Shown here one piece after another: positions 11,020 through 43,432 of a DNA stretch of 64,000 nt (its first letter is position 1; each line of letters begins with the position of its first letter). Origin of the DNA: Clostridia bacterium (GTDB lineage Bacteria; Bacillota; Clostridia; Peptostreptococcales; Anaerovoracaceae); NCBI GenBank assembly GCA_024403115.1, contig JAKSSL010000003.1:8031-72030 (forward strand), written 5' to 3'. The notes under the pieces were generated by a model. It worked only from the letters and a program-made list of their open reading frames with translations. It ran no database searches and had not been told where the DNA came from. Made by a program: the position numbers and the translations under genes.

Positions 11020-11038
11020 TAGAAAGGCGATAGTATTA

Positions 11039-12448: not shown

Positions 12449-12478
12449 AGGCCCTTATTAGAGGGAAAAGGTGAAAAT

Positions 12479-15103
12479 ATGGCGAAATATGTATATTCGT
12501 TTAATGAAGGCTCAAAGGACATGAGAGAGCTTTTGGGCGGAAAAGGTGCAAATCTGGCAGAGATGACTAAGATCGGCTTGCCAGTACCATTTGGCTTTAC
12601 AATTACAACAGAAGCTTGTAATAAATACTACGAAGAAGGACAGAAAATAGACGAAGCTTTAGTTGATGAAATCTACGAAAAGCTAGCTGAGTTGGAAGAA
12701 GTTATGGGCAAAAAGTTTGGAGATACAGAGGACCCACTACTTGTTTCAGTAAGATCAGGAGCGCCTATTTCCATGCCAGGAATGATGGATACAATTTTGA
12801 ATCTTGGTCTTAACGACGAAGCGGTTTTAGGTTTAGCAAAGCTAACAAATAATCCTAGATTCGCATACGATAGTTATCGCAGATTCATTCAAATGTATGG
12901 CGATGTTGTTCTGGAGATTCCTAAAACAAAATTTGATGAAATCTTTGATACTCAAAAGAAAAAGGCTAATGTAAGATTTGATTTTCTACTTTCACCAGAA
13001 GATTTACAAATCATCATAGCTGGATACAAAGAGCTTATTAAAAATGAGCTTGGCTTTGAGTTCCCACAAGATCCTAAGGAACAAATGATGGGTGCTGTTA
13101 TGGCCGTATTCAGATCATGGAACAATGAAAGAGCTATATTGTATAGAAAACTGAATGACATTCCAGGAGAGCTTGGAACAGCTGTAAATATTCAAGCCAT
13201 GGTATTTGGTAATATGGGAGAAACTTCTGGTACAGGAGTTGCTTTCTCAAGAAATCCTTCAAATGGTAAGAACAGATTGTTTGGAGAATTCCTTGTAAAT
13301 GCACAAGGCGAAGATGTTGTAGCCGGCATTAGAACTCCTGTAGAGATTGCAGAAATGGCCAATGTTTTTCCTGAACAATATGCACAATTTGAAAAAATCG
13401 CCAAGGTGTTGGAAGAACACTATCGCGACATGCAGGATATGGAGTTTACTGTTGAAAGAGGCAAGCTATTCATGCTTCAAACTAGAAACGCCAAGAGAAC
13501 TGCTTTGGCAGCTGTAAAAACAGCCGTTGATATGGTGGAGGAAGGCTTGATCACTAAGGAAGAGGCTGTAATGCGTCTTGAACCTGCTCAAGTTGAGAAT
13601 TTGCTTCACCCAATGTTCGATGAGGATAAGTTGAAAGAAGCTACATTGCTTGCAAAGGGACTTGCAGCATCTCCAGGAGCTGCTTGCGGTCAAATATATT
13701 TCAACGCTTCTGATGCTGAAAAAGCAGCAGCTGAAGGTCAAAAGGTTATACTAGTACGTCTAGAAACTTCACCAGAAGACTTGGCTGGAATGGTTGCCGC
13801 AGAAGGCATTTTGACAGCTCGTGGTGGAATGACAAGCCATGCTGCTGTAGTAGCTCGTGGTATGGGTAAACCTTGCGTTTCAGGCTGTTCAGAGCTAACA
13901 GTAAGAGAAGAAGGCAGAGAACTTATCATTAAGAACAGAATCTATAGAGAAGGTGATTTCCTTTCAATTGATGGTACTGAGGGTACAGTTTATGAAGGCA
14001 AAATCGCCACAGTTCAAGCTGGCATGAGTGGAAACTTTGGTACACTAATGACTTGGGCTGATGAGATTAGAAAGTTAGGCGTAAGAGCTAATGCTGACAA
14101 TCCTAGAGATGCAAAACAAGCTTTTGAATTTGGAGCTCAAGGAATTGGTCTTTGCAGAACTGAGCACATGTTCTTCGATGAGGAGAGAATCCCTCATTTC
14201 AGAAAGATGATTTTGGCAGATACTGAAGAAGAAAGAAGAGAAGCTTTAAAGGAAATTCTGCCATATCAAAAGGAAGACTTCGTTGGCATTTATCAAGTTA
14301 TGAAGGAATTGCCTGTTACTATCAGACTTTTGGATCCACCTCTACATGAGTTCATTCCAAACACTGATGAGGAACTTATGGCTTTATCAAGAGAAATCAA
14401 CATTCCTTTTGAAAAGCTTAAGAAGAAGGCTTTATCATTACATGAATTTAACCCTATGCTTGGACATCGTGGTTGCAGACTTGCCATCACTTATCCTGAA
14501 ATTGCTGAGATGCAAGCTGAAGCAATCATCACTGCAGCAATTGAGGTGAGCAAGTCAGAAGGCATTGAAATCGTGCCAGAAATCATGATTCCACTAGTTG
14601 GAAATGTTAAAGAACTACAATATGTTAAGGATGTTGTAGATGGAAAAGCTAAGGAATTAATAAAAGCTGCAGGCGTAAATATGAAGTACTTACTTGGTAC
14701 TATGATAGAAATCCCAAGAGCAGCTTTGACAGCTGATGAAATAGCAGAAGTTGCTGAGTTCTTCTCATTTGGAACTAACGACCTAACACAAATGGGTCTA
14801 GGTTTCTCCAGAGATGACACAGGCAAGATCATCAATGAGTACTTAGCAAAGGGCATTTTCGAAGAGGATCCATTCCAAAGCTTGGATCAAACAGGAATAG
14901 GAAAGCTTGTTGAAATAGCTGTAAAGCTTGGTAAGGAAAAGAGACCAGGAATTAAGCTTGGTATTTGTGGAGAACATGGTGGAGATCCAAAGACTATAGA
15001 CTTCTGTCATAGAACTGGATTGACTTATGTATCATGCTCACCATTTAGAGTTCCAATTGCAAGACTTGCGGCAGCACAAGCAGCTATCAAGGAAGGCAAG
15101 TAA
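12479..15103 (+). CDS. ppdK: Pyruvate, phosphate dikinase
   Basis: 874 aa. Phosphohistidine motif GGMTSHAAVVARG and a PEP-utilising C-terminal domain (GICGE). Confidence 0.95.
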   Translation: MAKYVYSFNEGSKDMRELLGGKGANLAEMTKIGLPVPFGFTITTEACNKYYEEGQKIDEALVDEIYEKLAELEEVMGKKFGDTEDPLLVSVRSGAPISMPGMMDTILNLGLNDEAVLGLAKLTNNPRFAYDSYRRFIQMYGDVVLEIPKTKFDEIFDTQKKKANVRFDFLLSPEDLQIIIAGYKELIKNELGFEFPQDPKEQMMGAVMAVFRSWNNERAILYRKLNDIPGELGTAVNIQAMVFGNMGETSGTGVAFSRNPSNGKNRLFGEFLVNAQGEDVVAGIRTPVEIAEMANVFPEQYAQFEKIAKVLEEHYRDMQDMEFTVERGKLFMLQTRNAKRTALAAVKTAVDMVEEGLITKEEAVMRLEPAQVENLLHPMFDEDKLKEATLLAKGLAASPGAACGQIYFNASDAEKAAAEGQKVILVRLETSPEDLAGMVAAEGILTARGGMTSHAAVVARGMGKPCVSGCSELTVREEGRELIIKNRIYREGDFLSIDGTEGTVYEGKIATVQAGMSGNFGTLMTWADEIRKLGVRANADNPRDAKQAFEFGAQGIGLCRTEHMFFDEERIPHFRKMILADTEEERREALKEILPYQKEDFVGIYQVMKELPVTIRLLDPPLHEFIPNTDEELMALSREINIPFEKLKKKALSLHEFNPMLGHRGCRLAITYPEIAEMQAEAIITAAIEVSKSEGIEIVPEIMIPLVGNVKELQYVKDVVDGKAKELIKAAGVNMKYLLGTMIEIPRAALTADEIAEVAEFFSFGTNDLTQMGLGFSRDDTGKIINEYLAKGIFEEDPFQSLDQTGIGKLVEIAVKLGKEKRPGIKLGICGEHGGDPKTIDFCHRTGLTYVSCSPFRVPIARLAAAQAAIKEGK

Positions 15104-18106: not shown

Positions 18107-20110
18107 ATGGGACGTAAAAAAATCAAGAAAACAAGTGAATATATCATGACCCAAAAGAGAATTAGAGCGGTATTTATTATTTTTGCCGTTCTAACTGTTT
18201 TGCTTTGTTTACGTTTGGCTAACATTCAAATCGTGGATTCTGACTACTACACTGAGCTTGCAATCAACCAACAAACAAAGGACGATTTAATCGAAGCAAA
18301 TAGAGGATCTATACTTGACAGAAATGGCAAAGAACTGGCTGTTTCGGCAACCAGCTATAATCTTTATGTGGATGTAAACACTTTAAGAAAAAACATTAAG
18401 TCATCTGAGGATGAAATGTATTACGACAAGCTGGTTAATAAGCTTAGCAAAATCCTTAAGATGAAGAAATCCACTATCAAAAAGACTATTGATAATAATC
18501 CTACTGGAGTTGTTTTGGCTAAGGGCCTTTCAAAAGCACAGAAGAACAAGGTCAGAAAGATAAAGGAAAACTCTATTACTTTCTCCGAGTCTAAGAAACG
18601 TTATTACCCTAACGGAAACTTCGCATCACAACTTTTGGGAAGCGTAACAGAGGACAATAACGGCAGAAGTGGTTTGGAATTGGAATATGACCAATATTTA
18701 AGCGGACTTCCAGGCAGATGGATTAAGAACACTGACAATAACGGAAGCGAACTTGATTCTGGAACTAAGGAATACTATGCAGCGGAGAATGGATCCAATT
18801 TAGTCCTAACTATAGACGAGGTAATTCAACACTATGTTGAAAACGCCATTAAGAAGGCTATGAAGACTACCGAATCCGACAAGATAATGGCTATTGCCAT
18901 GAATCCTGAAACTGCTGAAGTTCTTGCTATGGCAGCAACTCCTGGTTTTGATCCAAACAATGCAACAAAGCCTAGCGACGAAAAAGAATATAACAAATTC
19001 AAAAAGATGAGCAATAAGAAGCAATTGGATTATCTTTACAAGATGTGGAGAAATCCTTTGGTAAATGACACTTATGAGCCTGGTTCAACTTTCAAGCTTA
19101 TAACATCCTCATCTTCTCTAGAATCCGGTGTAGTTAATACTACTGAATCATTCTATTGCTCAAATCACATACAAGTAGGTGGCTATACTCTACACTGTGC
19201 AGAGAACAAGAGGCACGGTGACCAATTGCTTAGAGACGCAGTTGCCAATTCATGTAATACAGTCCATGTACAATTAGCATTGCGTTTGGGAGCTGAAAGA
19301 TTCTACGATTTCATATCAGCTTACGGTTTTACAAGCATAACAGGAATAGACTATCCTGGTGAGGTTTCAGCACAAATTCAAGATGAAGAAAACCTGAGCA
19401 AAGTTTCCCTAGCCACTATGGGCTTCGGTCAAGGTATTGCCGTAACACCAATTCAATTGATTACTGCAGTATGCGCAATCGGTAATGATGGAGTTATTAT
19501 GCAACCAAGACTGGTTAAGGCTTTACAGGACGAAGACGGAAACATAATCAAGGAATTCAAGCCTAAGAAATTACGCCGTGTCATTTCAGAGGAAACTGCC
19601 AGCGAAATGTGTAAGATCATGGCCTATGAAGTACAAACTGGTACTGGTAGAAAAGCGGCTGTAGCAGGATACCGTGTTGGAGGAAAGACAGGAACAGCAG
19701 ACCAAATTTCATCCGATGGTAGTTATGGTAAGAGACAATGCACATCCTTTATGTGTATGGCTCCAATGGATGATCCAAAGTTTGCTTTACTTGTAATTTG
19801 CGATAACCCTAAAGAAGGTAGCTTTGGTAGTACTACAGCGGTTCCAATTGCCAAAGAAATACTTGAAAACAGTTTAAAATACTTAGAAATAGAGCCTGTA
19901 TTCTCTTCAAATGAAAAGAAGGAGAATGAGGATTTAAATACAAAGGTGCCTAATATTACAGGTAAGGACCTTAAGAAAGCTAAGTCCATGATAGAGAAAA
20001 AGGACTTAAAATACATTGTAACTGGAGACAAGGATAAGGTTGTAGACCAGTATCCTAAGGCTGGAACAAAGGTTGCAAAGGACAGCACAGTTATAATTTA
20101 TACTGAATAG
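18107..20110 (+). CDS. Class B penicillin-binding protein (FtsI/PBP2B/SpoVD type) with one C-terminal PASTA domain
   Basis: N-terminal TM helix and dimerisation domain. Transpeptidase motifs STFK, SCN and KTGT. PASTA-like tail (VPNITGKDLKKAKSMIEKKDLKY..). Confidence 0.92.
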   Translation: MGRKKIKKTSEYIMTQKRIRAVFIIFAVLTVLLCLRLANIQIVDSDYYTELAINQQTKDDLIEANRGSILDRNGKELAVSATSYNLYVDVNTLRKNIKSSEDEMYYDKLVNKLSKILKMKKSTIKKTIDNNPTGVVLAKGLSKAQKNKVRKIKENSITFSESKKRYYPNGNFASQLLGSVTEDNNGRSGLELEYDQYLSGLPGRWIKNTDNNGSELDSGTKEYYAAENGSNLVLTIDEVIQHYVENAIKKAMKTTESDKIMAIAMNPETAEVLAMAATPGFDPNNATKPSDEKEYNKFKKMSNKKQLDYLYKMWRNPLVNDTYEPGSTFKLITSSSSLESGVVNTTESFYCSNHIQVGGYTLHCAENKRHGDQLLRDAVANSCNTVHVQLALRLGAERFYDFISAYGFTSITGIDYPGEVSAQIQDEENLSKVSLATMGFGQGIAVTPIQLITAVCAIGNDGVIMQPRLVKALQDEDGNIIKEFKPKKLRRVISEETASEMCKIMAYEVQTGTGRKAAVAGYRVGGKTGTADQISSDGSYGKRQCTSFMCMAPMDDPKFALLVICDNPKEGSFGSTTAVPIAKEILENSLKYLEIEPVFSSNEKKENEDLNTKVPNITGKDLKKAKSMIEKKDLKYIVTGDKDKVVDQYPKAGTKVAKDSTVIIYTE

Positions 20111-20119
20111 GAGAGCTAT

Positions 20120-21499
20120 ATGAGAGCAATAAGCTTTAATGAAATTGAAAAAGTTGTAAATGGAAAGCTTGTAGCAGGAGATGGAAATGCAATGGCAACA
20201 GGCATGAAACTTGATTCCAGACAAGTGGGCGAAGGAGATATATTCTTCCCCCTAATTGGAGCTAAGGTCAATGCCTACAAATTTATCCCCAATGTTATTG
20301 AACAAAATGCTGCAGGAATGATAATTGATGACATTTCATATTTGCCAGAAAACTGTCCTATTCCAACTATTTTAGTTGATAATGTTACTAAAGCTATGGA
20401 CCAGCTTGCCAAGTATTTAATGGATGAATTAGGTGGCCGCAGACTTATGGTTACAGGTTCAGTGGGCAAGACAAGTACTCGTGATATGTTAACTGCTATT
20501 GTAGCTAGCAAATACAAGGTTGAGTCCAACAAGGGCAATTTGAACAGCATTTGGGGTGTGCCTCTAAGCGTTGCAAAACTTCAAGCAGGCATGGATTTCT
20601 ATGTAATCGAAGCAGGCATGGAGTGGGCTGGAGAGATACACACAATTGCCGATATAGTTAGACCTGAAATGGCTTTAATAACAAATATAGGCATTTCCCA
20701 TATGGAACACTTAGGTTCCAGAGAAGGCATTTTAAAAGCAAAGCTGGAATGTACAGATTACTTCAACGAGGATTCTTGCTTAATTGTAAACGGCTCCTCC
20801 GATCTTTTGACTGAAGAAAATTGCAAGGGCAATTACAGATTAAAGCTTATCTACGGTGAAGCTGGCAAGGGCGAAACATATATTAAAGATGTTGAAGATT
20901 ATGGCACAAAGGGAATCAAATATACTTTGTGCGTAGATGGCAAAGAGGAAGATGTTAGATTAAACTTACCAGGGGCTCACAATGCTGAAAACAGTGCTTT
21001 GTGCATACTTGCAGGCTTAGAGCTTGGAATATCTGTGCCAGATGCTGTAAAAGCAATTAATGAGATGACAATAACAGGCCAAAGATTGGCTGAGAAAACA
21101 AATGGAAAGATAAGAGTAATCGATGACAGCTATAATGCAGCTCCAGCGTCCATGAAATCAGCTATTAATACTTTAATGTCAAGTGAGGGAAAGCGCAAAG
21201 TTGCGATCCTGGCAGACATGTATGAACTAGGTGAGGATAGCTACAAATATCATGTAGAAGTGGGCGAATATGCTGCATCAAAGAGAGTTGATTTACTAAT
21301 AGCTGTTGGAGAAGATGCTCAAGGATATGTTCACGGGGCTTCCAAACTTTTAAGCTTTGACAAGATTAAGTATTTTGAAACAAAAGCTGAGCTGGCAGAG
21401 GCTCTAGATGACTTGATACAAGATGGGGACCTAGTGCTTGTAAAAGGTTCTCGTGGCGTAGAAATGGAAACTATAGTAGCACAATTATTGGAGAAATAG
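20120..21499 (+). CDS. murF: UDP-N-acetylmuramoyl-tripeptide--D-alanyl-D-alanine ligase
   Basis: Mur ligase P-loop VTGSVGKTSTRDM, DDSYNA motif, three-domain length (459 aa), dcw position. Confidence 0.9.
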   Translation: MRAISFNEIEKVVNGKLVAGDGNAMATGMKLDSRQVGEGDIFFPLIGAKVNAYKFIPNVIEQNAAGMIIDDISYLPENCPIPTILVDNVTKAMDQLAKYLMDELGGRRLMVTGSVGKTSTRDMLTAIVASKYKVESNKGNLNSIWGVPLSVAKLQAGMDFYVIEAGMEWAGEIHTIADIVRPEMALITNIGISHMEHLGSREGILKAKLECTDYFNEDSCLIVNGSSDLLTEENCKGNYRLKLIYGEAGKGETYIKDVEDYGTKGIKYTLCVDGKEEDVRLNLPGAHNAENSALCILAGLELGISVPDAVKAINEMTITGQRLAEKTNGKIRVIDDSYNAAPASMKSAINTLMSSEGKRKVAILADMYELGEDSYKYHVEVGEYAASKRVDLLIAVGEDAQGYVHGASKLLSFDKIKYFETKAELAEALDDLIQDGDLVLVKGSRGVEMETIVAQLLEK

Positions 21500-21509
21500 G
21501 AGAATTACA

Positions 21510-22469
21510 ATGGAGATGAAAACATTACTAATAACACTTATTTTGGCCTTTGTATTAGGAGTAATATTCACAAGAATTGTAATTCCTACTATGAAAAAAT
21601 TACAGTTCCAACAATTCCAGAGAGAAGAAGGCCCTAAGTCACATATGCACAAACAGGGTACTCCTTCCATGGGTGGAATTGGAATATTGCTGGCCTGCAT
21701 AATTGCTTGCGCTATAGCAGGAGGTTTAAGTCTAAACGTATTAATAACAATACTATGTACTTTGGCCTTTGCTTTAGTAGGATTTCTTGATGATTATGCA
21801 AAAGCAGTAAAGAAACAAAATGAGGGTTTAAACCCTAAGCAAAAGATTATATTCCAATTTGTATTTGCTTTGGCTTTTGCCATATACATGGGATTAAGCC
21901 TTGGAACAGAGGTATGGATACCATTCTATGGCCAAGAAGTAGACTTTGGAATAATGTATTATCCTTTCATTGTCTTTGTTTTACTAGCTATGACTAACAG
22001 CGTAAACCTAACAGATGGAATGGATGGCTTGGCATCAGGAGTTACTTTCTTCGTTGCTTTGTTCTTCGTTTATACAGCAAACACTTTTGCTTTTCCTGAT
22101 GAAGGAATATATGCTATGGCTTTAGCCGGCGCTTGCCTTGGATTCTTGGTTTTCAATCACTATCCTGCAAAGATATTTATGGGAGACACAGGTTCCATGG
22201 GACTTGGAGCAGCTCTATCAGCTGTAGCTATTGCAATGAAAGCCGAGCTTTTATTACCAATCGTTGGCCTGATCTATGTGCTTGAAGCATGCTCAGTAAT
22301 CATTCAAGTGGCATATTTCAAGAAGACAGGCGGAAAGAGATTCTTTAGAATGGCTCCATTGCATCACCACTTCGAAGAAGGTGGCATGAAGGAGACAAAG
22401 GTAGTATTAATGTTTTGGGCTTTTGCCATCCTATGCTGCTTAATAGGTGTGGGAGTAATTAATATTTAG
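21510..22469 (+). CDS. mraY: Phospho-N-acetylmuramoyl-pentapeptide transferase
   Basis: Polytopic protein with the motifs DDY.K, NLTDG.DGLA and PLHHHFE. Confidence 0.95.
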   Translation: MEMKTLLITLILAFVLGVIFTRIVIPTMKKLQFQQFQREEGPKSHMHKQGTPSMGGIGILLACIIACAIAGGLSLNVLITILCTLAFALVGFLDDYAKAVKKQNEGLNPKQKIIFQFVFALAFAIYMGLSLGTEVWIPFYGQEVDFGIMYYPFIVFVLLAMTNSVNLTDGMDGLASGVTFFVALFFVYTANTFAFPDEGIYAMALAGACLGFLVFNHYPAKIFMGDTGSMGLGAALSAVAIAMKAELLLPIVGLIYVLEACSVIIQVAYFKKTGGKRFFRMAPLHHHFEEGGMKETKVVLMFWAFAILCCLIGVGVINI

Positions 22470-22484
22470 GAAGAAGATGATTAT

Positions 22485-23852
22485 TTGAATAATATTCAAA
22501 ATATAGAGGACAAGAAAGTTCTAGTAGTAGGACTTGGAAGATCAGGAGTTGCAGCTATTGAGGTTCTTAACAAGCTGGGGGCAAGGGTTTATGCCCAAGA
22601 TTCTAAGGAAAGAGAACTTCACGAGGAACAGCTGGTTCTATGGCTTGAAGGCCTTGGAATTCCATGCTATTTTGACTGCATACCTGATGATATGAACGAA
22701 TTTGATATGTTGGTTTTGAGCCCTGGAGTTAATCCTGAGCTGGACTTTATTCAGGATGCAAAAGCTAAGGGCGCAGAAATAGTAGGTGAACTTGAAATTG
22801 CCTATAGAATTTCAAGGGGCACTTTTATTGGCATTACAGGTACTAATGGCAAAACTACTACCACTACTTTAGTTGGAGAAATCTTCAAAGAGGCAAAGAA
22901 GAAAACTGAGGTTGTAGGAAACATCGGTGTTGCAGTTATTAGTTCTTCTGTGGAAAGCGATGTTGACACATACATGGTTACTGAATGCAGCAGCTTCCAG
23001 TTGGAAACTACAAAGTATTTCAAACCACATGTTTCGGCCATTTTGAACCTTACACCAGATCATTTAAACAGACACCATAGCTTTGAAAACTATGGCTTGG
23101 CAAAAGCTAAGATTTTTGCCAATGAAAACGAAAACGACTATTTAATCTTAAACTATGATGATAAGAATTGCTTTGCTTTAGGAGAAAATGCCAAGGCAAA
23201 AATTGTTCCTTTCTCTCGTAAGGAGAAGCTGGAATATGGTGCATTTCTTGAAGGAGACGACTTGGTACTAATCAATGACCAAGGGGAGAAGCTTCAAATT
23301 TGTCATAGGGAAGATATTAAAATAATAGGTAATCACAATTTGGAAAATGTACTGGCTGCAGCCGCTATTTCCTATTTTGCAGGAATTGATATGGACAGCA
23401 TCAGAAGAGCAATTTCCAAGTTTAAAGGGGTAGAACATAGAATAGAATACAGCGGAGAAGTGGAAGGCGTGCAATATTACAATGACTCTAAGGGCACTAA
23501 TGTAGACGCTGCTGTTACCGCTATAAATGCTATGGAAAAGCCTATAATTCTCCTTGCAGGTGGAGACGGTAAATCACAGGATTTCAAGCCTTTTGTAGAG
23601 GCTTTTGGAGATAAGGTAAAAGCCTTGGTAACTCTGGGCAGAGACGGCCATTTTATTGCTGAAGAAGCCATGAAGAATGGCTATACAAATATTCATCAAT
23701 GCAAGGATTTAGTGGAAGCAGTAAAATGTGCTCACCAGTTAGCAAGCGCAGGGGATGTTGTTCTATTTTCACCAGCTTGTGCAAGTTGGGATATGTACGA
23801 TAATTTCGAACAAAGAGGAAGACATTTTAAAGATTTAGTAAGTCATTTATAA
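22485..23852 (+). CDS. murD: UDP-N-acetylmuramoylalanine--D-glutamate ligase
   Basis: Rossmann N-terminus VVGLGRSG, P-loop ITGTNGKTTTT, and a MurD-type C-terminus. TTG start after AGGAAGAAG. Confidence 0.92.
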   Translation: MNNIQNIEDKKVLVVGLGRSGVAAIEVLNKLGARVYAQDSKERELHEEQLVLWLEGLGIPCYFDCIPDDMNEFDMLVLSPGVNPELDFIQDAKAKGAEIVGELEIAYRISRGTFIGITGTNGKTTTTTLVGEIFKEAKKKTEVVGNIGVAVISSSVESDVDTYMVTECSSFQLETTKYFKPHVSAILNLTPDHLNRHHSFENYGLAKAKIFANENENDYLILNYDDKNCFALGENAKAKIVPFSRKEKLEYGAFLEGDDLVLINDQGEKLQICHREDIKIIGNHNLENVLAAAAISYFAGIDMDSIRRAISKFKGVEHRIEYSGEVEGVQYYNDSKGTNVDAAVTAINAMEKPIILLAGGDGKSQDFKPFVEAFGDKVKALVTLGRDGHFIAEEAMKNGYTNIHQCKDLVEAVKCAHQLASAGDVVLFSPACASWDMYDNFEQRGRHFKDLVSHL

Positions 23853-24994
23853 TGAAGATAAAAAAGCCTAAATTAAAACTTAATATAGGTAAAACTGGGG
23901 ATTTTGCCCTTATTGTAACTGTCATATTGCTAAGCCTTTTTGGTATAGCAATGGTTTTTAGTGCCAGTTACTATAAGGCTTTAAACGATTTCGACAACGC
24001 CAGTTATTTTGCAATTAGACAGTGCTTTTGGGTAGCTGCTGGATATGTACTTATGTACATCTTTTCAAAAGCAAATTATCACGTATGGAAAAAGTTTTCC
24101 AAGGTGATTTACATAGTAGTAGTAATCCTTTTGGCACTTATATTTACACCACTTGGAGTTTCACAAAACGGTGCTACAAGATGGCTTTTGGTACCGGGAA
24201 CAGGCTTTACTATTATGCCTGGTGAGTTTGCAAAATTTGCGCTAATAGTGTGCGGTGCAACTTTCCTATCCGTGAAGAAGGATAGGATCAGGGACTTAAA
24301 GGATGGTTTAATCCCATATTTCCTATTAGCCATAGTTTTAGTTGCTTTAATTTGGGAACAACCTAACAAGTCCACTGCTTTAATCGTACTTGCAACTGCA
24401 GTGGGAATTGCTTTTGTAGCAGGACTAAAGAAGATATATCTTATTCTTGCAGCTGGTGGAGTTGCTTTAGGCTTAGTAATAATTGCTTTAAAAGGAGGCT
24501 ATGCGGCATCAAGAATCGCGGCATGGCTACACCCTGAAAACGATATTCAAGGGGAAGGCTGGCAGGTCGCTCAAGGCTTGTATGCCCTAGGTTCTGGCGG
24601 TTTATTTGGCCGTGGAATCGGTAACAGCGTACAGAAAACCCTTTACATGCCAGAGCCTCAAAACGACTTTATTTTAACAATTATCGGTGAAGAAATAGGC
24701 CTTATTGGACTTATGGTTTTATTATTAGTATTCCTATTCCTAATTTATAGAGGATTTATGATAGCTGCCAATGCGGAGGATCAATTGGGGACTCTATTGG
24801 CAAGCGGAATAACTGGTTTAATTGCAATACAATTGGTTTTAAATGTTTGCGTCGTAACAGCGTTAATACCAAATACTGGAGTTATGCTGCCATTTATCTC
24901 ATATGGAGGAAATGGTACCATGGTATTGCTTGCTTTAATGGGCATACTGGTTAATATTTCAAAACATCAAAAGGAGAATAGACTACAAGAATGA
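23852..24994 (+). CDS. ftsW: SEDS-family peptidoglycan glycosyltransferase FtsW/SpoVE
   Basis: Polytopic (predicted multi-pass) membrane protein with the FtsW/RodA signature (PEPQNDFI, SYGG). TAATG coupling to murD. Confidence 0.9.
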   Translation: MKIKKPKLKLNIGKTGDFALIVTVILLSLFGIAMVFSASYYKALNDFDNASYFAIRQCFWVAAGYVLMYIFSKANYHVWKKFSKVIYIVVVILLALIFTPLGVSQNGATRWLLVPGTGFTIMPGEFAKFALIVCGATFLSVKKDRIRDLKDGLIPYFLLAIVLVALIWEQPNKSTALIVLATAVGIAFVAGLKKIYLILAAGGVALGLVIIALKGGYAASRIAAWLHPENDIQGEGWQVAQGLYALGSGGLFGRGIGNSVQKTLYMPEPQNDFILTIIGEEIGLIGLMVLLLVFLFLIYRGFMIAANAEDQLGTLLASGITGLIAIQLVLNVCVVTALIPNTGVMLPFISYGGNGTMVLLALMGILVNISKHQKENRLQE

Positions 24995-26085
24995 ATGTCA
25001 TAGTTAGCGGTGGCGGCACAGGTGGCCACATCTACCCAGCAATAGCAATTGCAGACAAAGTAATGGAAATGGACGCTAATTCCAAGGTGTTATTCATTGG
25101 AAATCCTATTGGTTTAGAAGCTGAGCTTGTACCTAGAACAGGCTATGATTTTAAAATGGTTACAGCCAGATGGTTTGACAGAAGCAATCCGCTGGATGCT
25201 GTTAAAATGGTTTTCGCGGTAAAAAAAGGCACTAGGGAAGCCTTGAAAATCATGAAGGAATTCAAACCTGATATTGTAATTGGAACAGGCGGTTATGCTT
25301 GCGTGCCAGTGGTTAGAGCCGGCAAAAAATACGGTGCAAAGACCTTCATTCAAGAACAAAATGCATATCCAGGTATGGCAAACAAAACTCTTGGCATGAT
25401 AGTTGACAATATATTCCTAGGCTTTGAAGCTGGAAGAAAGTATTTCAAAAAGCAGGAAAAGTGTGTCTTTACAGGCAATCCTGTTAGAAAGGATTTCTTC
25501 CAACGTGATAAAAAGCAATGCAGAGCTGAGCTAGGATTTAGAGAGGACGATTTTATAGTATTTTCATTTGGCGGAAGCCAAGGCTCCCAGGCCATAAATG
25601 AGGTGTCTTACCAATTGATGAAGAAAATCAATGGCCAAAGTGATATGAGCATGATCTTTGGAACAGGCAATCAGTACTATGAAAATATTATGGCTGATAT
25701 TAAAGCTGAAAAGCTGGAACTTCAAGATAATATTGTAATCAAGGATTACATGAACGATATAGACAAGTATATGGCTTGTGCCGATCTTGTAATTGGAAGA
25801 TCAGGTGCTTTATCTGTGGCTGAAACATGCGCTTTAGGAAAAGCGGCCATATATATTCCGTCGCCTATGGTAACAGGAAACCATCAATTCTATAATGCAA
25901 AAGCGGTAGGCGACAAAGGCGGTGCAATGGTAATAGAGGAAAAGGATCTAAGCAGTGAACTTATTATTAACACTGTCTTTGATTTAAAAGCATCCCCTAC
26001 AAAACTTCAAGAAATGAGTGTGGCAAGCAGGAACGCATTACCTGACAATGCCACTGAAATAATATATTCATATTTTAAGAAATGA
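24991..26085 (+). CDS. murG: Undecaprenyl-PP-MurNAc-pentapeptide GlcNAc transferase
   Basis: GGGTGGHIYPA.A, and GRSGA.S..E in the C-terminal domain. Confidence 0.93.
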   Translation: MNVIVSGGGTGGHIYPAIAIADKVMEMDANSKVLFIGNPIGLEAELVPRTGYDFKMVTARWFDRSNPLDAVKMVFAVKKGTREALKIMKEFKPDIVIGTGGYACVPVVRAGKKYGAKTFIQEQNAYPGMANKTLGMIVDNIFLGFEAGRKYFKKQEKCVFTGNPVRKDFFQRDKKQCRAELGFREDDFIVFSFGGSQGSQAINEVSYQLMKKINGQSDMSMIFGTGNQYYENIMADIKAEKLELQDNIVIKDYMNDIDKYMACADLVIGRSGALSVAETCALGKAAIYIPSPMVTGNHQFYNAKAVGDKGGAMVIEEKDLSSELIINTVFDLKASPTKLQEMSVASRNALPDNATEIIYSYFKK

Positions 26086-26885
26086 GAAAAAAGAAAAGGG
26101 TAGAGCCAACTTATTATAGAAAAAAGGTTGGTTCTTACAATTTCGAAAAACATAAGAGGGAGAACAGGGCAAAAAGACGTAAAATCAACTACAAGAGAAG
26201 GATTTTAATCGTCTTACTTGTTATAGTTGCAGTGGTAGCATTTTTATGCTCGCCGTTTTTTAATGTTGATAAAATCCAAATTAAGGGAAACCACAAGTTT
26301 ACCGATGCAGAGATTATCCAAAAGGGTAAAATCGAAAAGGGACACAATATTTTCTGGGGTTCGGATAAGTCGGGCATCAAATCCAGATTGCTAGAAAATC
26401 CATATATTGGCGATGTAAATGTGAGCATGGATTTGCCTAAGACTTTGGAAGTCAAAGTGAACGAAAGAAAAGCCAAGTATTACTACAAGAAGGGCGGATA
26501 CATATTGCTGGATAAAAACGGCATTTGCCTTGAAATAGTCAAGGACGTACCTAAACTTCCACAAATATATGGTTTGACTCTGAGAAAATCTGATCTGGGT
26601 GTGAAATTACAGGTTGATGAAGAAAGAAATTACGACAAGATATTGAAGCTTCTTAATAAAACAAAGAAGTCCGATTTATTCTTCAAGAAAGTTAAGATAA
26701 GCAAGGGTACAGTTTATGCCAATATTTACGACAATTTATTGGTAAAAGGAAGCTTTAACCAGGTGAGCCAAGCCATGGATAATGGCAGTCTAAAACAGGT
26801 AATTTACAAGCTTCAACAGGAGGGAGTAAAGCGAGGAACAATTACTATAGAAAAAGAAAATTATTTGTCGTTTAATCCTTTATAA
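26082..26885 (+). CDS. ftsQ: Cell division protein FtsQ/DivIB
   Basis: Basic N-terminus, single TM helix, POTRA-like segment (I.I.GN...T..EI). Position between murG and ftsZ. Confidence 0.8.
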   Translation: MRKKKRVEPTYYRKKVGSYNFEKHKRENRAKRRKINYKRRILIVLLVIVAVVAFLCSPFFNVDKIQIKGNHKFTDAEIIQKGKIEKGHNIFWGSDKSGIKSRLLENPYIGDVNVSMDLPKTLEVKVNERKAKYYYKKGGYILLDKNGICLEIVKDVPKLPQIYGLTLRKSDLGVKLQVDEERNYDKILKLLNKTKKSDLFFKKVKISKGTVYANIYDNLLVKGSFNQVSQAMDNGSLKQVIYKLQQEGVKRGTITIEKENYLSFNPL

Positions 26886-26898
26886 TTCAAGGCTTTTG

Positions 26899-26907
26899 TG
26901 ATATAAT
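26899..26907 (+). promoter_or_regulatory. Extended -10 element (TGATATAAT) upstream of ftsZ
   Basis: TG-N-TATAAT at 26899-26907 in the 59-nt ftsQ-ftsZ spacer. No clear -35. Confidence 0.45.
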
Positions 26908-26944
26908 ATTTATCAAGTAAAATGTCACGGGAGGAACATGGGAA

Positions 26945-28078
26945 ATGTTGCAATTTGAAAGTAATGTAAGCAATGAGGCAATCATAAAAGTTGTAGGTGT
27001 TGGTGGCGGTGGATGTAATGCCATTAACCAAATGATCGACGCTGGTTTAGAAGGCGTAGAATTTATTGCCATTAATACAGATACACAAGCTTTAGGAAGA
27101 ACTAAGGCAGAGATAAAAATACAAATAGGAGACAAGCTAACTCGTGGATTAGGCGCAGGCAGTAACCCTGCAATAGGCCAACAATCTGCAGAAGAAAATA
27201 TTGAAGCTATCGTTTCCAATTTGGAAGGTGCAGATATGGTATTCATCACTGCCGGCATGGGTGGTGGTACAGGTACTGGTGCTGCTCCAGTTATTGCTAA
27301 AGCTTCAAAGGAAATGGGCATACTAACTGTTGGTGTTGTTACAAAGCCATTTAAGTTTGAAGGCCAAAAGAGAAAGAACCAAGCAGAACTTGGTATTGAA
27401 TATTTGAGAAAGTATGTTGATTCATTGGTAGTAATTCCAAATGAAAAGCTTTTGGAAACATGTGATGAGAGCACTTCATTCTTAGACGCATTCCGTATGG
27501 CCGACAATGTACTTCGTCAAGGTGTACAAGGTATTTCAGATTTGATTTCTGATTATGCTTTGGTAAACGTAGACTTTGCTGATGTTAAGTCAGTAATGAC
27601 TGACAGAGGTATTGCACATATGGGCGTTGGTGTTGGAAAGGGCGAAAACAGAGCTATGGATGCAGTTAATGCTGCAATCAAGAGCCCATTACTTGAGACT
27701 ACAATCACAGGGGCAAAGGCCGTTCTTCTATACATCTCAGGTGGCTACGATTTAACTATGTTCGAAGTTAATAAGGTTTCAACTTTAGTACAAGAACAAT
27801 TAGATGAAGATGCAATCATTATCTTCGGAGCTGCTGTTGATGCAGATTTGAGCGATCAAATTTCTATTACAGTAATTGCAACAGGATTTGCAGATATGCC
27901 TGGTATGGGTCTAGGTGGTGGCTCAGCTCGTATAAAAAAAGCTGAAGCTTCAGAACCGGAAATAACAGAAGTCAATGGAGTTAATGCTAGGGAAGTAAAC
28001 CTACAAGACATCATTCCAGAGGATGGAGAAAAAGAGGAAGAATCGAAATTCAAGATTCCTTCATTTTTAGAACATTAA
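26945..28078 (+). CDS. ftsZ: Cell division protein FtsZ
   Basis: Tubulin signature [11 protein letters not shown]-terminus [13 protein letters not shown], and the C-terminal peptide FKIPSFL. Confidence 0.97.
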
Positions 28079-39461: not shown

Positions 39462-40205
39462 ATGGTTAGAAAAACTAAGATACTTATGGCGTTAATCGCA
39501 GCGCTTTTAGTAGTAATTGCAGTGATTTCTATACTGTTTATTGACACTAAAAACCTATTAGAAGAAGCGCAAGCGGCAAATGCGGCATACGCTAAAACTG
39601 CGGTTAAAACTCAAAAGAAAATTGAGAAAAAGCAGGCTAAAATCGATGACGTTAAAGATAACTTGGACACTGTAAAGGACAAGAATAAGGACCTTAAGAG
39701 TGAAGTTAAGTCTTTGAAAAAAGCCAATGCTAGATTAGAAAAACAAATTGGAAAAGCAAAGGATGCTCAATATAAAGCCGAAGTTGAATTAAAAAAATAC
39801 AAGCAGAGGAAGAGTAAAATCGACAATGTAATTAACCTCGCAAAAAGTAAGCTTGGCTGCAGATATGTTCACGGCCGTTGTGGCCCATACTATTTTGACT
39901 GTCAAGGCTTCGCATGGTATGTATACCACAATACTGTAGGCTGTATTACAACTGGAGGCTGTCATAAACAATTCAATTCTGTTTCCTATGGTTATGTTTC
40001 GAATAATTTAAGTGATGCCAAAAGAGGAGATTTAATATATTTCCTTAAAGGCAGTTATTATTCTCATGTAGCCCTATATATTGGAGGCGGAAAGATTATT
40101 CACGCAACTACTGGTGGCGGATATCATAGGGTTGTAATTACTTCAATTCCTAGATCATGGGCATCATCATTTAAGGTAGTAAGGCCGATTCCAAATGTAA
40201 AATAA
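39462..40205 (+). CDS. Membrane-anchored coiled-coil NlpC/P60 family cell-wall endopeptidase
   Basis: N-terminal TM helix, about 100-aa Lys/Glu-rich coiled coil, C-terminal NlpC/P60 domain with catalytic Cys (YFDCQGF) and His (YSHVALYIGGGKIIHA). Confidence 0.85.
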   Translation: MVRKTKILMALIAALLVVIAVISILFIDTKNLLEEAQAANAAYAKTAVKTQKKIEKKQAKIDDVKDNLDTVKDKNKDLKSEVKSLKKANARLEKQIGKAKDAQYKAEVELKKYKQRKSKIDNVINLAKSKLGCRYVHGRCGPYYFDCQGFAWYVYHNTVGCITTGGCHKQFNSVSYGYVSNNLSDAKRGDLIYFLKGSYYSHVALYIGGGKIIHATTGGGYHRVVITSIPRSWASSFKVVRPIPNVK

Positions 40206-40215
40206 TGGAGATAAA

Positions 40216-41217
40216 ATGACAAAATTAACTTTTATATTAAGAAAATTAACAGATACAAATTATAAGGCAATTTTTAAAACAGCTTCAGATATTGCAAAGA
40301 TTACAGGCAAGAGCAAATTAGCTATTTTAAAGGATATGGCTGATTGCACTGCCAAATATGGTTCAGGCTACGTTGATTACAAAGACTTTAGAATGTACGA
40401 ATTAAGCCCTGAAAAGAGAGCTGAAATTCTTACAATCACAAAGAACAACGAATTGGTCAGAACTTTGAATCAAGCGGAATACAGAGACTTTTTCGAGGAT
40501 AAAGAAAAATTCAACAGAAAGTTCTCCAAGTATCTTCACAGAGAGTGGATGATAATAAATGGAGAAAACTTTGAGGAGTTTAAGGCTTTCGTAGACGGCA
40601 AGCCAGCCGTTATTGTAAAACCTTTGGGCCTATCATGTGGTAAGGGTATTGAAAAGGTTTACCCTGATCAAGAGAAGGACCTTAAGGCAACTTACGACGA
40701 GCTTTATGCTCACAACTGTATATTAGTTGAAGAGCTTGCAAAGCAATGCGACGAAATGAGCGCTTTCTGCACAACTTCAATCAATACAGTTAGATTGGTA
40801 TCAGTAATCACAAATTCTGGAGAGCCTAAGCTTTGCGCTGGCGTATTTAGAATGGGTAGAGAAGGTGCATATGTAGATAATTTCAATCACGGTGGCATAG
40901 GCGCTAATGTTGATGTTTGGAAAGGCGAAACAGCAACAGACGGCTATGACAAGGATAGAAACATCTACGAGTACACTCCAGTAACAAATCAAAAGCTTAA
41001 AGGCTTCAAAATTCCTCAATGGGAAGCTTGCGAAGCTATGGTTAAGGAAGCCGCAATGGTTGTTCCTCAAGTAAGATATGTTGCATGGGATGTTTGCATA
41101 GCTCCAGAGGGCCCATTGCTAATCGAAGGAAACAGTTATCCAGGCCAAGATTTGTCTCAATATCCTGAGTTGGGACTTGGAACTTACAAAGCGATTACAG
41201 ATGTTTTAAACAGTTGA
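40216..41217 (+). CDS. ATP-grasp ligase, 'sugar-transfer associated' (ATPgrasp_ST-like) family
   Basis: VIVKPLGLSCGKGI, VEE, NFNHGGIGANVD and WDVCIAPEGPLLIEGN match the ATP-grasp core of the alpha-L-glutamate-ligase-related group. Confidence 0.7.
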   Translation: MTKLTFILRKLTDTNYKAIFKTASDIAKITGKSKLAILKDMADCTAKYGSGYVDYKDFRMYELSPEKRAEILTITKNNELVRTLNQAEYRDFFEDKEKFNRKFSKYLHREWMIINGENFEEFKAFVDGKPAVIVKPLGLSCGKGIEKVYPDQEKDLKATYDELYAHNCILVEELAKQCDEMSAFCTTSINTVRLVSVITNSGEPKLCAGVFRMGREGAYVDNFNHGGIGANVDVWKGETATDGYDKDRNIYEYTPVTNQKLKGFKIPQWEACEAMVKEAAMVVPQVRYVAWDVCIAPEGPLLIEGNSYPGQDLSQYPELGLGTYKAITDVLNS

Positions 41218-41226
41218 TTTATAGGA

Positions 41227-41257
41227 AAGGACAAGCTTTAGACTTGTCCTTTTTTTA
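41227..41257 (+). terminator. Rho-independent terminator after the ATP-grasp gene
   Basis: AAGGACAAG-CTTTAGA-CTTGTCCTT hairpin followed by TTTTTT. Confidence 0.8.
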
Positions 41258-41277
41258 TGTGAATTTTAGGGCTTTTG

Positions 41278-41286
41278 TGGTATAAT
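41278..41286 (+). promoter_or_regulatory. Extended -10 promoter element (TGGTATAAT) for the second MurT-like/GatD-like module
   Basis: TG-N-TATAAT at 41278-41286, about 33 nt upstream of ATG 41319. Confidence 0.5.
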
Positions 41287-41318: not shown

Positions 41319-42695
41319 ATGGGAAAGTTAAAATTTCTTGTAGCACACTGGGCTGCAAAGGCCTCAGTTGTAGCTTTAAAAATCACAAAACACAACGGAA
41401 CAAATTTTCCAGGAGAGCTTGCAATCAAGATCTGTCCTGACTTTTTGAAATACATAGATAAGCCTGAAACTATTATTGGAGTAACAGGAACAAACGGTAA
41501 GACTACTGTATGTAATTTGCTAATTGATATGTTCACTGCTGATGGCCAGGTGCCACTTAATAACAGAGCAGGTTCCAATATTAATTCGGGCATTGCAACA
41601 AGTCTAATTCACGGAGCTAATCTATTTGGAAAATGCAAGCACAACCTAGGAGTTTTGGAAATAGATGAAAGATCAGCTTTGAGGGTATTCCCTTATGTAA
41701 AGCCAAACTACTTGATCATTACAAACCTGTTTAGAGATTCCATGAAGCGTAATGCTAACACAGAATATATTGCTGACATTTTAAGCAAATACATTCCTAA
41801 GGAGACTAAATTAGTTCTAAATGCAGATGATTTAATCTCATCAAATGTTGCACCAGAAAACCCAAGAGTATATTTTGGAATCGATAAGATGGATAGTGAC
41901 ATAAAGGAATGCACAAACCTAATCAATGATATTAGAATTTGCCCAGTATGCCATAGCAAATTGGAGTATGAGTATTTGAGATATCACCACATTGGAAAAG
42001 CACATTGCGTTTCCTGTGACTTTAAATCTCCAGGATATGACTACTGTGCAAAGAATGTAAATATAGATGATATGACCATGGAAATAGTTGATAAGGACGG
42101 TCTAGGTAACTACCGACTAATCAGCAATGGCATTCATAATATTTATAATATGGTAACTGTTATTGCACTGTTCAGAGAGCTTGGATACAAGCACGGCATT
42201 ATAGAAAAGTTAATGAGCCAAACTTCTATAGTAAAGAGCAGATATAATGCAGTACCAGCAGGCAAGGTAAGAGTAATAAATCAAATGGCCAAGGAAAACA
42301 ATGCCCTTGGATCATCGAGAGCTTTTGACTTCGTGTCCAAGGAACCTAACGACAAGGAATTGATTTTGATGATGAACTGTCTAGGTGATGAGAAACACTG
42401 GTCAGAAAATACTTGCTGGCTATATGACTGCGACTTTGAATTTCTAAACGACGAAAAGATTAAGAAGATAATTGTTACAGGACCTAGATATAAGGACTAT
42501 ATCCTGAGACTTTTAATAGCTGGAGTTGATAGAGCAAAAATCGTGGACACTGCTCATGAAATTGATGCACCAGATTTGCTGGACTTCACTCCTGGGGAAG
42601 ATATTTATGTCTTCTTTGGAACAGATTCCCTGGCTCTTGGAAACAAGGTCCTTGCCAAAACAATTGACTTGGCAAAAGAAAGGGGTGATAAGTAA
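41319..42695 (+). CDS. MurT-like Mur-ligase-family protein, paralog 2
   Basis: GTNGKTTVC, LEIDERS, FRDSMKR (MurT has FRDQMDR), VLNADDL, zinc ribbon CPVCHS..(17)..CVSC, DUF1727-type C-terminus. ATG 41319 follows TAGGAGA; the track start is 41301. Confidence 0.8.
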   Translation: MGKLKFLVAHWAAKASVVALKITKHNGTNFPGELAIKICPDFLKYIDKPETIIGVTGTNGKTTVCNLLIDMFTADGQVPLNNRAGSNINSGIATSLIHGANLFGKCKHNLGVLEIDERSALRVFPYVKPNYLIITNLFRDSMKRNANTEYIADILSKYIPKETKLVLNADDLISSNVAPENPRVYFGIDKMDSDIKECTNLINDIRICPVCHSKLEYEYLRYHHIGKAHCVSCDFKSPGYDYCAKNVNIDDMTMEIVDKDGLGNYRLISNGIHNIYNMVTVIALFRELGYKHGIIEKLMSQTSIVKSRYNAVPAGKVRVINQMAKENNALGSSRAFDFVSKEPNDKELILMMNCLGDEKHWSENTCWLYDCDFEFLNDEKIKKIIVTGPRYKDYILRLLIAGVDRAKIVDTAHEIDAPDLLDFTPGEDIYVFFGTDSLALGNKVLAKTIDLAKERGDK

Positions 42696-43432
42696 TGAAA
42701 ATTGAAGTATTATTCCCTGAGATTTGCAATCTTTTTGGAGAACTAGCAAACATTAGATATTTGGAATCCAGCTTAAAGGAAAGCGGTGAGTTTTACGAAA
42801 TTACATACACTTCCTTGAAGGATGAACCTTTATTTGCCAGTGAAAAACCGGATTTAATCTACATGGGCGGAATGTCTGAGCATTCTCAAAGCCTTGTTGT
42901 AGACAAGCTTATGCCATATAGAGACAGAATTATTGACTTAATTAAGGACGACACGAATTTCCTTATCACATCAAATGCTTTGGAAATTTTCGGAGAAAGA
43001 ATCGAGTTTTGCGATGCTGACTACGAGGATATTAAAGGCCTTAGCATCTTCCCAACTGTAGCAAAGAATCAAATGTATAAAAGATTCAATTGCCTGTATT
43101 TGGGCAAGCTAGGTGATATGGAAATAGTAGGCTTTAAAAGCCAATTCGGTCATAGTTATTTGAATGGAGACAAGAACTATGAGGACCTATTTGAAACAAT
43201 AAAGGGAACAGGATTAAACCCTGAATATAAAAACGAGGGGATAAAGGTTAATGGCTTCTTGGCAACTTATGTTGTTGGACCTATCTTGGTGCTAAATCCT
43301 GATTTTACAAAGGCTTTAATGAAGAGGATGGGCGTAGGAGAACCAAAGCTGGCTTATGAAGAGGCAGCATACGAAAGCTACAATCAAAGGCTTAATGAAT
43401 ACAAGGAAGAAAATAGAGGCTTCTATTATTAG
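42695..43432 (+). CDS. GatD-like CobB/CobQ-type amidotransferase-fold protein, paralog 2, without the catalytic Cys/His
   Basis: LITSNALEIFG in place of the Cys elbow, and NEGIKVNGFLATYVVGP in place of the ..GTYLHGP His motif. TAATG overlap with the upstream ligase. Confidence 0.75.
   Translation: MKIEVLFPEICNLFGELANIRYLESSLKESGEFYEITYTSLKDEPLFASEKPDLIYMGGMSEHSQSLVVDKLMPYRDRIIDLIKDDTNFLITSNALEIFGERIEFCDADYEDIKGLSIFPTVAKNQMYKRFNCLYLGKLGDMEIVGFKSQFGHSYLNGDKNYEDLFETIKGTGLNPEYKNEGIKVNGFLATYVVGPILVLNPDFTKALMKRMGVGEPKLAYEEAAYESYNQRLNEYKEENRGFYY

Follow-up and report, generated by a model that had tools for sequence, protein, structure and literature searches.

Why should a bacterium keep a glutaminase-like protein that has lost the residues for hydrolysing glutamine? 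The question is raised by GatD-like paralog 2 (GatD-like 2), encoded in a 64,000-nucleotide stretch of contig JAKSSL010000003.1 from a Clostridia bacterium of the Anaerovoracaceae (assembly GCA_024403115.1, positions 8,031 to 72,030), here called the window. Its gene directly follows that of a MurT-like ligase (MurT-like 2), and a second pair, MurT-like 1 and GatD-like paralog 1 (GatD-like 1), lies upstream. MurT/GatD is regarded as an amidotransferase that depends on glutamine; it is also seen as a drug target and as an indicator of isoglutamine-type peptidoglycan, and surveys have counted it as “widespread in Clostridiales” (PMC6085368). We describe a large Clostridial family of MurT/GatD-like pairs which, judged by their residues, would be unable to hydrolyse glutamine yet are conserved like any enzyme. 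GatD-like 2 is probably a pseudo-glutaminase that serves the upstream ligase as a required, non-catalytic subunit, the triad having been replaced once, in an ancestor.

A GatD fold without the glutaminase residues

GatD-like 2 matched the Pfam family GATase_3 weakly (E = 6e-9, 36 bits) and fell below the NCBIfam equivalog cut-offs for GatD, with 62.3 and 58 bits against 450 and 400. A phmmer search of the Protein Data Bank (PDB) returned GatD chains only, from Streptococcus pneumoniae (6fqb_E, E = 1.1e-12), Streptococcus pyogenes and Staphylococcus aureus. The AlphaFold model, built on 17 orthologues, had a pLDDT of 91.9 and a pTM of 0.91, and its top nine Foldseek matches were all GatD (TM 0.77–0.84, rmsd 2.6–4.0 Å, 22–23% identity), the nearest solved fold being S. 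aureus GatD (6gs2_A, TM 0.83, rmsd 2.6 Å). Other class I amidotransferases reached a TM of about 0.55 at most. The predicted fold is thus GatD-specific, of the GatD/CobQ subtype, and includes the extra C-terminal helix.

An earlier note on this DNA had picked out two peptides, LITSNALEIFG and TYVVGP, as the sites of the former nucleophile and histidine, and both are exact on translation at their nucleotide positions (Table 1). For the nucleophile column it had offered Ser93 or Thr92. The PDB alignments placed Ser93 (codon TCA, 42971-42973) opposite Cys107/Cys94 of the solved proteins; Thr92 was rejected, as it aligns with Ile93 of S. aureus GatD, which leaves Ser93 alone in that column. Val194 (codon GTT, 43274-43276) stood opposite the catalytic His206/His189, as the note had proposed, and paralog 1 does differ at both columns, with Gly90 opposite Cys94 and Leu192 opposite His189 in its alignment to S. 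aureus GatD (E = 2e-13). In the model, strand 88-91 runs straight into helix 93-99, so that Ser93 occupies the strand-helix junction, the nucleophile-elbow position that the note had suggested looking for.

The same columns were read in the 119 best homologues of each paralog (47–59% identity for paralog 2, 63–75% for paralog 1). Paralog 2 homologues have Gly at the Cys column in 118 cases and Ser in one, and at the His column Ile (94), Leu (19), Thr (4) or Val (2), never His; the paralog 1 homologues are uniform, with Gly and Leu, respectively, in 119 of 119. An exhaustive HMMER search of 1.84 billion cluster representatives (50% identity) gave 1064 matches at E ≤ 1e-3, 502 at E ≤ 1e-10 and 134 at E ≤ 1e-30. 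At the Cys column the best 149 of these carry Gly (132), Ser (10), Ala (2), Asn (2) or Cys (1), and at the His column Leu, Ile, Val and others, with a single His; none of the 149 combines Cys and His in one protein. Two members, P0259 (from a Fastidiosipila sp.) and P0197, each have one canonical residue, Cys with Met at the His column in one and His with Gly at the Cys column in the other, and could be reversions or relics. Few deep-branching members of the family have names, and these belong to the Lachnospiraceae and to Fastidiosipila.

We then tabulated 358 family members against the residue roles described for S. aureus GatD (PMC5871853), using S. aureus numbering. The Cys column is Gly in 343 and Ser in 11; the His column is Leu in 206, Ile in 125, Thr in 9, Val in 8 and His in one, a protein without Cys. 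The neighbourhood has changed with them: the oxyanion-hole residue Gly95 is replaced by Asn in 345 members, Gly96 of the elbow by Ala in 303 and Gln98, next to the elbow, by Glu in 334, and the oxyanion-hole position G60 is Cys, Thr, Ser, Pro or Ala in most members and Gly in the window copy. Other parts of the site are kept, among them the lid residue Tyr17 (as Tyr/Phe), the candidate triad acid Asp19 (as Asp/Glu), Gly190-Pro191 after the His column (355–357 members) and Asn196. Thr92 of GatD-like 2 is Thr in 333. Arg130 is at least 90% conserved and pairs Arg-to-Arg with S. pneumoniae and S. pyogenes GatD in the HMMER alignments; it is likely, though not certain, to be the equivalent of the glutamine-capturing Arg128 of S. 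aureus, an assignment based on HMMER, since MAFFT shifts the column.

The third residue of the triad comes from the ligase: in S. aureus it is Asp349 of MurT (PMC6113224), whose S. pneumoniae counterpart is D355. This column is Asn in 78 of 78 MurT-like 2 orthologues and Thr in 7 of 7 MurT-like 1 orthologues, and the preceding Arg348 column is Glu in all of both (78/78 for MurT-like 2); the MurT-like 2 family motif D-x-x-H-W-S-E-N-T-C-W takes the place of DNAADGRD. With no Cys, His, oxyanion Gly or MurT Asp, glutaminase chemistry appears to be lost from the GatD-like 2 family.

Origin of the loss and selection on the pair

The earlier note held that paralog 2 had diverged at the catalytic positions independently of paralog 1, and the residues in the window (Ser/Val against Gly/Leu) are what a separate, convergent loss of Cys and His after duplication would predict. 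The wider family points the other way. In a neighbour-joining tree of 234 columns, rooted on S. aureus and S. pneumoniae GatD, the paralog 1 orthologues form a tight clade nested within the family, and 19 representative lineages that fall outside the group descended from the ancestor of both paralogs all lack Cys and His. In 52 columns the two paralog groups have the same residue, conserved to 90% or more, and they share derived residues: the elbow T-G-N-A-x-E (T92, G93, N94, E97) and GFKSQF (including S149-Q150-F151), where canonical GatD has GFENHxG. Because Gly stands at the Cys column in both orthologue groups, the outside lineages have neither catalytic residue and the derived residues are shared, the catalytic residues appear to have been lost once, before the duplication, and the independent losses proposed in the note are highly unlikely. 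Gly would be the ancestral state at the Cys column and Ser93 a minority, derived state of the window lineage; the 10 serines among the 149 representatives are sporadic and scattered over the family, and Ser is also found in Frisingicoccus. Ser93 and Val194 are best read from the alignments as later drift, from Gly and from Ile/Leu, at positions that were already non-catalytic. A strain-specific loss, which the note had also considered, finds no trace among the 119 paralog 2 orthologues: none has His, and the Cys column is Gly or Ser.

The family is widespread. Relatives were found in at least 568 species in a scan of one genome per species that was based on 17 of the closer orthologues, and the named matches among those listed are all Clostridia; carriers include Lentihominibacter hominis, Brotomerdimonas butyrica, Emergencia, Sporobacter termitidis and Frisingicoccus caecimuris, as well as members of the Lachnospiraceae and Oscillospiraceae, very common human-gut species among them. 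We compared 80 related loci of 20 kb each, and wherever a locus includes upstream sequence, a MurT-like gene directly precedes the GatD-like one. Both pairs in the window overlap by one base at the stop and start codons (TAATG), which suggests coupled translation; overlaps of 4 nt occur elsewhere. Natural MurT-like/GatD-like fusions of 698–758 amino acids were found in four cluster representatives (P0142, P0153, P0159 and P0234, all from metagenomes), in which the MurT-like part is joined to a GatD-like domain without Cys by a linker of about 30 residues. Genomes carry two to three paralogous pairs, and one locus (L043) holds three MurT-like genes. Six Frisingicoccus loci have two GatD-like genes in tandem (L047, L048, L051 and L070, at about 10001–12570, and also L057 and L062), with a MurT-like gene detected upstream of each copy in the first four. 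The first copy has Ser/Val as in the window (Asn/Val in L057) and the second Gly/Val, or Gly/Ile or Gly/Leu in two loci.

GatD-like 2 is under strong purifying selection, like its ligase gene. For orthologue pairs with dS < 0.7 (Nei-Gojobori), dN/dS was 0.03–0.15 for GatD-like 2 and 0.03–0.07 for MurT-like 2, and 54 columns are invariant among 17 orthologues at 50–60% identity. These values, set beside the absent catalytic residues, agree with the view in the earlier note that selection has kept the GatD fold and its link to the ligase but not the chemistry of a glutaminase; together with intact orthologues in all those species, they also uphold its argument against an artefact or a recent pseudogene. 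A sequencing error was rejected separately, as the protein is 100% identical to an NCBI protein of a metagenome-assembled “Clostridia bacterium” and its residue states recur in hundreds of orthologues. Some features of the window copies do recall a decaying or redundant gene, tolerated thanks to paralog 1: GatD-like 2 departs at 5 of 68 highly conserved columns (Y14F, G93S, R125N, S133C and N187G), and MurT-like 2 lacks a His found in 76 of 79 orthologues. However, 18 of the 119 paralog 2 orthologues deviate at least as much, the reading frame is whole, its start overlapping the stop of the ligase gene, the structure prediction has high confidence and the low dN/dS is that of the orthologue group. 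Most species, moreover, carry pair 2 without pair 1 nearby, so that pair 2 is the core copy. Decay is therefore extremely unlikely, and GatD-like 2 is best classed, on its residues, its conservation across species and the selection acting on it, as a putative pseudoenzyme.

Possible roles of the putative pseudo-glutaminase

MurT-like 2 lies below the NCBIfam equivalog cut-off for MurT (185 against 800 bits); it has the MurT_C domain and lacks the N-terminal UDP-binding domain. The ligase motifs, with residue roles from PMC6085368, are conserved: the GTNGKT P-loop, the E-x-D-E Mg ligands, the G-(S/A)-N acceptor-carboxylate loop, the adenine-binding Asn residues, the hinge Arg, K-N and a Cys4 zinc ribbon. 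By its ATP, Mg and acceptor motifs, MurT-like 2 is predicted to be an intact ATP-dependent ligase. Its active-site loop reads (R/K)-D-S-x-x-R-N-(G/A)-H in the family, with the final His in 76 of 79 MurT-like 2 and 7 of 7 MurT-like 1 orthologues; the loop in the window is FRDSMKRNAN, with Asn where the family has His. Canonical MurT is itself noted for having no His in this loop (PMC6085368).

From its sequences, the pair is best described as a glutaminase-dead variant of MurT/GatD, the lipid II isoglutaminyl synthase of S. aureus, S. pneumoniae and Mycobacterium tuberculosis (6GS2, 6FQB, 5N9M): it has the same architecture but not the catalytic residues of GatD. The two systems share a ligase-first, two-gene cassette with overlapping frames, a ligase without the UDP-binding domain but with the zinc ribbon and MurT_C, a GatD fold (TM 0.83) with the extra C-terminal helix, the Gly-Pro after the His column, Asn196, the Tyr lid and, probably, the capturing Arg. 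They differ in that Cys94 has become Gly (Ser in the window), His189 Leu, Ile or Val, Gly95 Asn, Gln98 Glu, MurT Asp349 Asn or Thr and Arg348 Glu, with the DNAAD motif replaced, and in that several paralogous pairs occur per genome here, often with a linked ATP-grasp ligase. CobQ and CobB contain the Pfam family that GatD-like 2 matches, GATase_3, but have the catalytic Cys and His and are fused to a different ATP-binding domain, in contrast to the Mur-type ligase context found here. A parallel for the loss is the vertebrate ammonia-dependent carbamoyl-phosphate synthetase I, which keeps an inactive glutaminase-like domain (Cys to Ser): there, too, a class I amidotransferase module without its nucleophile is retained in an ATP-dependent enzyme that uses free ammonia, although that enzyme belongs to the ATP-grasp family and not to the Mur ligases, and its module is a domain fused into a eukaryotic protein. 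MurT relatives that are independent of an active GatD also exist among the MurT-like ligases of pseudomurein methanogens, but those archaeal genes have no GatD homologue at all (PMC11915815), whereas the Clostridial family always has a conserved GatD-like partner. We found no description of a glutaminase-dead MurT/GatD-like family in the literature.

What might such a pair do? Engineered mutants of the S. aureus enzyme reproduce the natural states seen here, Gly (family) and Ser (window) at Cys94 and Asn (MurT-like 2) at Asp349, although they are single changes in a canonical enzyme (PMC3266927, PMC6113224), whereas in the Clostridial proteins the whole active-site neighbourhood has been remodelled and fixed by selection. 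With glutamine as donor, amidation of lipid II is abolished by GatD C94S or C94G and severely impaired by MurT D349N (PMC6113224). The C94G enzyme amidates as before when given ammonia at pH 8.5, yet each subunit alone is inactive (PMC3266927). The Gly state of the family is that of the C94G mutant; the family would therefore not use glutamine, could in principle use ammonia and would still need the GatD fold. The simplest nitrogen donor would be free ammonia, which is plentiful in the gut and rumen.

On this basis we infer a substrate, a nitrogen donor and a physical complex as follows. The Cys-His-Asp(MurT) triad and the oxyanion-hole glycines would have been replaced once, in the ancestor of the large Clostridial family. 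The complex would most likely convert a carboxylate of a lipid-linked peptidoglycan precursor into an activated acyl-phosphate, as the conserved ligase motifs suggest, and the nitrogen nucleophile would not come from glutamine hydrolysis. In the version that we favour, free ammonia (or ammonium) would be used directly and would enter by way of the old glutaminase site, now remodelled and more acidic; alternatively, another amine or an amino acid might be delivered. Several observations weigh against a non-catalytic subunit of an ammonia-using ligase. More polar residues have become newly fixed in the old active site (Asn94 and Glu97, with the Glu-Asn and His-Trp of MurT-like 2) than a pure scaffold would need, and the presence of two to three pairs per genome with a linked ATP-grasp ligase may point to chemistry beyond simple ammonia-dependent amidation. 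If canonical Cys/His MurT/GatD is present in the same genomes, the pseudo-pairs probably have a different job. Finally, the use of ammonia by the S. aureus enzyme in vitro is confined to pH 8.5 (PMC3266927).

Two other readings of the pocket must be weighed against the ammonia-using ligase. GatD-like 2 might still be a glutaminase or amidase with Ser93, or Thr92, as an alternative nucleophile. The elbow position of Ser93, the near invariance of Thr92 and the retention of the substrate-pocket residues Arg130, Tyr/Phe14 and Asp/Glu16 would fit this, but no His or other general base stands at the His column, the oxyanion Gly has become Asn, the orthologues have Gly rather than Ser, and the C94S mutant of S. 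aureus GatD is inactive (PMC6113224). Thr92, matching Ile93, would be the last strand residue before the apex of the elbow, with its side chain probably pointing away from the pocket. Such activity is very unlikely. A less remote alternative is that the pocket, made up of Asn94, Glu97, Arg130 and Asp/Glu16 of the GatD-like protein and the Glu-Asn/Thr and His-Trp of the MurT-like C-terminal domain, binds and presents a different nucleophile from ammonia, for example a diamine or an amino acid. In that case each pair would be a ligase with a specificity of its own that adds amines or amino acids to a stem-peptide carboxylate and works with the RimK-like ATP-grasp ligase.

This second alternative draws on polar and acidic residues that are new to the former active site and invariant there, on paralog-specific differences in the MurT-like motif, on the number of pairs per genome and on operon linkage to the ATP-grasp peptide ligase in 25 of 80 loci. 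Substitutions of the D-Glu alpha-carboxyl group by glycine, amides and cadaverine or putrescine are, moreover, known in peptidoglycan. Further background on D-Glu substitution is given in PMC12826042, which does not name the responsible ligase, and the literature yielded background statements only, with no ligase gene identified for polyamine-linked peptidoglycan. Against it, no riboswitch or other ligand clue was found, the Negativicutes, known for polyamine-linked peptidoglycan, are absent from the 80 loci examined, and the C94G precedent already explains a simpler, ammonia-dependent enzyme. We regard a non-ammonia nucleophile as possible but unlikely on balance. A more far-reaching form, which we hold as a slightly more doubtful speculation, is that the dead pocket and the remodelled MurT C-terminal motif form a new nucleophile-delivery site with the pseudo-GatD as specificity subunit, and that these cassettes, with the ATP-grasp ligase, account for the missing enzymes that place non-amide substituents or branches on the D-Glu or diaminopimelate carboxyls of peptidoglycan in abundant gut Clostridia.

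If the pair is a ligase with a pseudo-glutaminase subunit, its annotation needs revision. Source databases label family members “hypothetical”, “CobQ-like glutamine amidotransferase” or “lipid II isoglutaminyl synthase (glutamine-hydrolysing)”, and the labels that imply glutamine hydrolysis or amidotransfer from glutamine would be wrong in mechanism. The family could also serve as a natural experiment in which the ligase needs the GatD fold for reasons beyond ammonia production. Its product may be an ammonia-derived amide or a new stem-peptide substituent; either would alter NOD1/NOD2 sensing of gut-commensal peptidoglycan.

The locus and its neighbours

Six co-directional genes form a block, in the order MurT-like 1, GatD-like 1, NlpC/P60 endopeptidase, ATP-grasp ligase, MurT-like 2 and GatD-like 2, flanked by argS and by a ribokinase/nucleoside-hydrolase group (Table 1).

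Table 1 Features of the MurT/GatD-like block, in window coordinates
Feature	Position	Strand	Basis or remark
MurT-like ligase 1, 459 aa	37298..38677	+	Thr366 at the Asp349 position; stop overlaps GatD-like 1 start (TAATG)
GatD-like paralog 1, 240 aa	38677..39399	+	Gly90/Leu192 at the Cys/His columns
Coiled-coil and NlpC/P60 peptidoglycan endopeptidase, secreted or membrane-anchored	39462..40205	+	Pfam NLPC_P60, E = 4e-14; RipC/CwlO-like matches
ATP-grasp ligase (ATPgrasp_ST), RimK/Ddl-type fold with N-terminal helical extension	40216..41217	+	Pfam, E = 8e-47
Terminator-like hairpin, 9-bp stem AAGGACAAG/CTTGTCCTT, then T run	41227..41256	+	Read from sequence
Extended -10 element TGTGGTATAAT (TGnTATAAT) upstream of MurT-like 2	41276-41286	+	Read from sequence
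MurT-like ligase 2, 464 aa	41301..42695	+	Pfam Mur_ligase_M and MurT_C; PDB MurT, E = 4e-46; stop overlaps GatD-like 2 start by 1 nt (TAATG)
DEKHWSENTCW in place of canonical DNAADGRD(349)TSW	42387..42419	+	Asn370 (42408-42410) at the S. aureus MurT Asp349 position
GatD-like paralog 2, 245 aa, class I amidotransferase fold without catalytic residues	42695..43432	+	Pfam, NCBIfam, PDB phmmer, AlphaFold and Foldseek
Former nucleophile elbow LITSNALEIFG (L90-G100)	42962..42994	+	Ser93, Asn94 and Glu97 at the Cys, oxyanion Gly and Gln columns of canonical GatD
Arg130, probable counterpart of the glutamine-capturing Arg (S. aureus R128, S. pneumoniae R142)	43082..43084	+	HMMER alignments
TYVVGP (T191-P196), remnant of the canonical (T/S)Y(L/F)HGP motif	43265..43282	+	Val194 at the His column

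The endopeptidase, between pair 1 and the ATP-grasp gene, has an N-terminal hydrophobic segment, a long coiled coil and the NlpC/P60 domain; no counterpart of its gene was found in the 80 related loci (E ≤ 1e-8, at least 50% query coverage). For the ATP-grasp protein the AlphaFold model had a pLDDT of 93, and its nearest Foldseek matches were RimK, Ddl and LysX-type peptide ligases at a generic TM of about 0.5; sequence and profile searches found no solved relatives. Its gene immediately precedes that of MurT-like 2, on the same strand and no more than about 80 bp away, in the 25 linked loci. Another group of loci has it on the opposite strand between the two pairs; among them is a very common human-gut species with the order MurT1-GatD1-ATPgrasp(-)-MurT2-GatD2-pyk-spoVG-purR-murC-glmU. 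Beyond the ATP-grasp ligase and the second pair, the neighbours in the 80 loci gave no functional clues, being variable housekeeping genes (cardiolipin synthase, SpoIVA, ABC-F, a major facilitator superfamily (MFS) transporter, pyruvate kinase, SpoVG). The hairpin and the -10 element in the window lie between the ATP-grasp gene and pair 2, and a consensus scan listed neither.

At relaxed thresholds, no Rfam match to a riboswitch or leader RNA that would name a ligand was found around the locus, and no Rfam family reached its gathering score in positions 1-64000. The latter scan thus detected no T-box leader upstream of glyS (10988), pheST (28882) or argS (35581), which is unusual for a Firmicute. 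The window also holds a dcw (division and cell wall) cluster at 18107-28078, in which murE is absent from its usual place between the penicillin-binding protein (PBP) gene and murF; the cluster comprises, in this order, genes for a SpoVD-like PBP, murF, mraY, murD, ftsW/spoVE, murG, an unassigned open reading frame and ftsZ.

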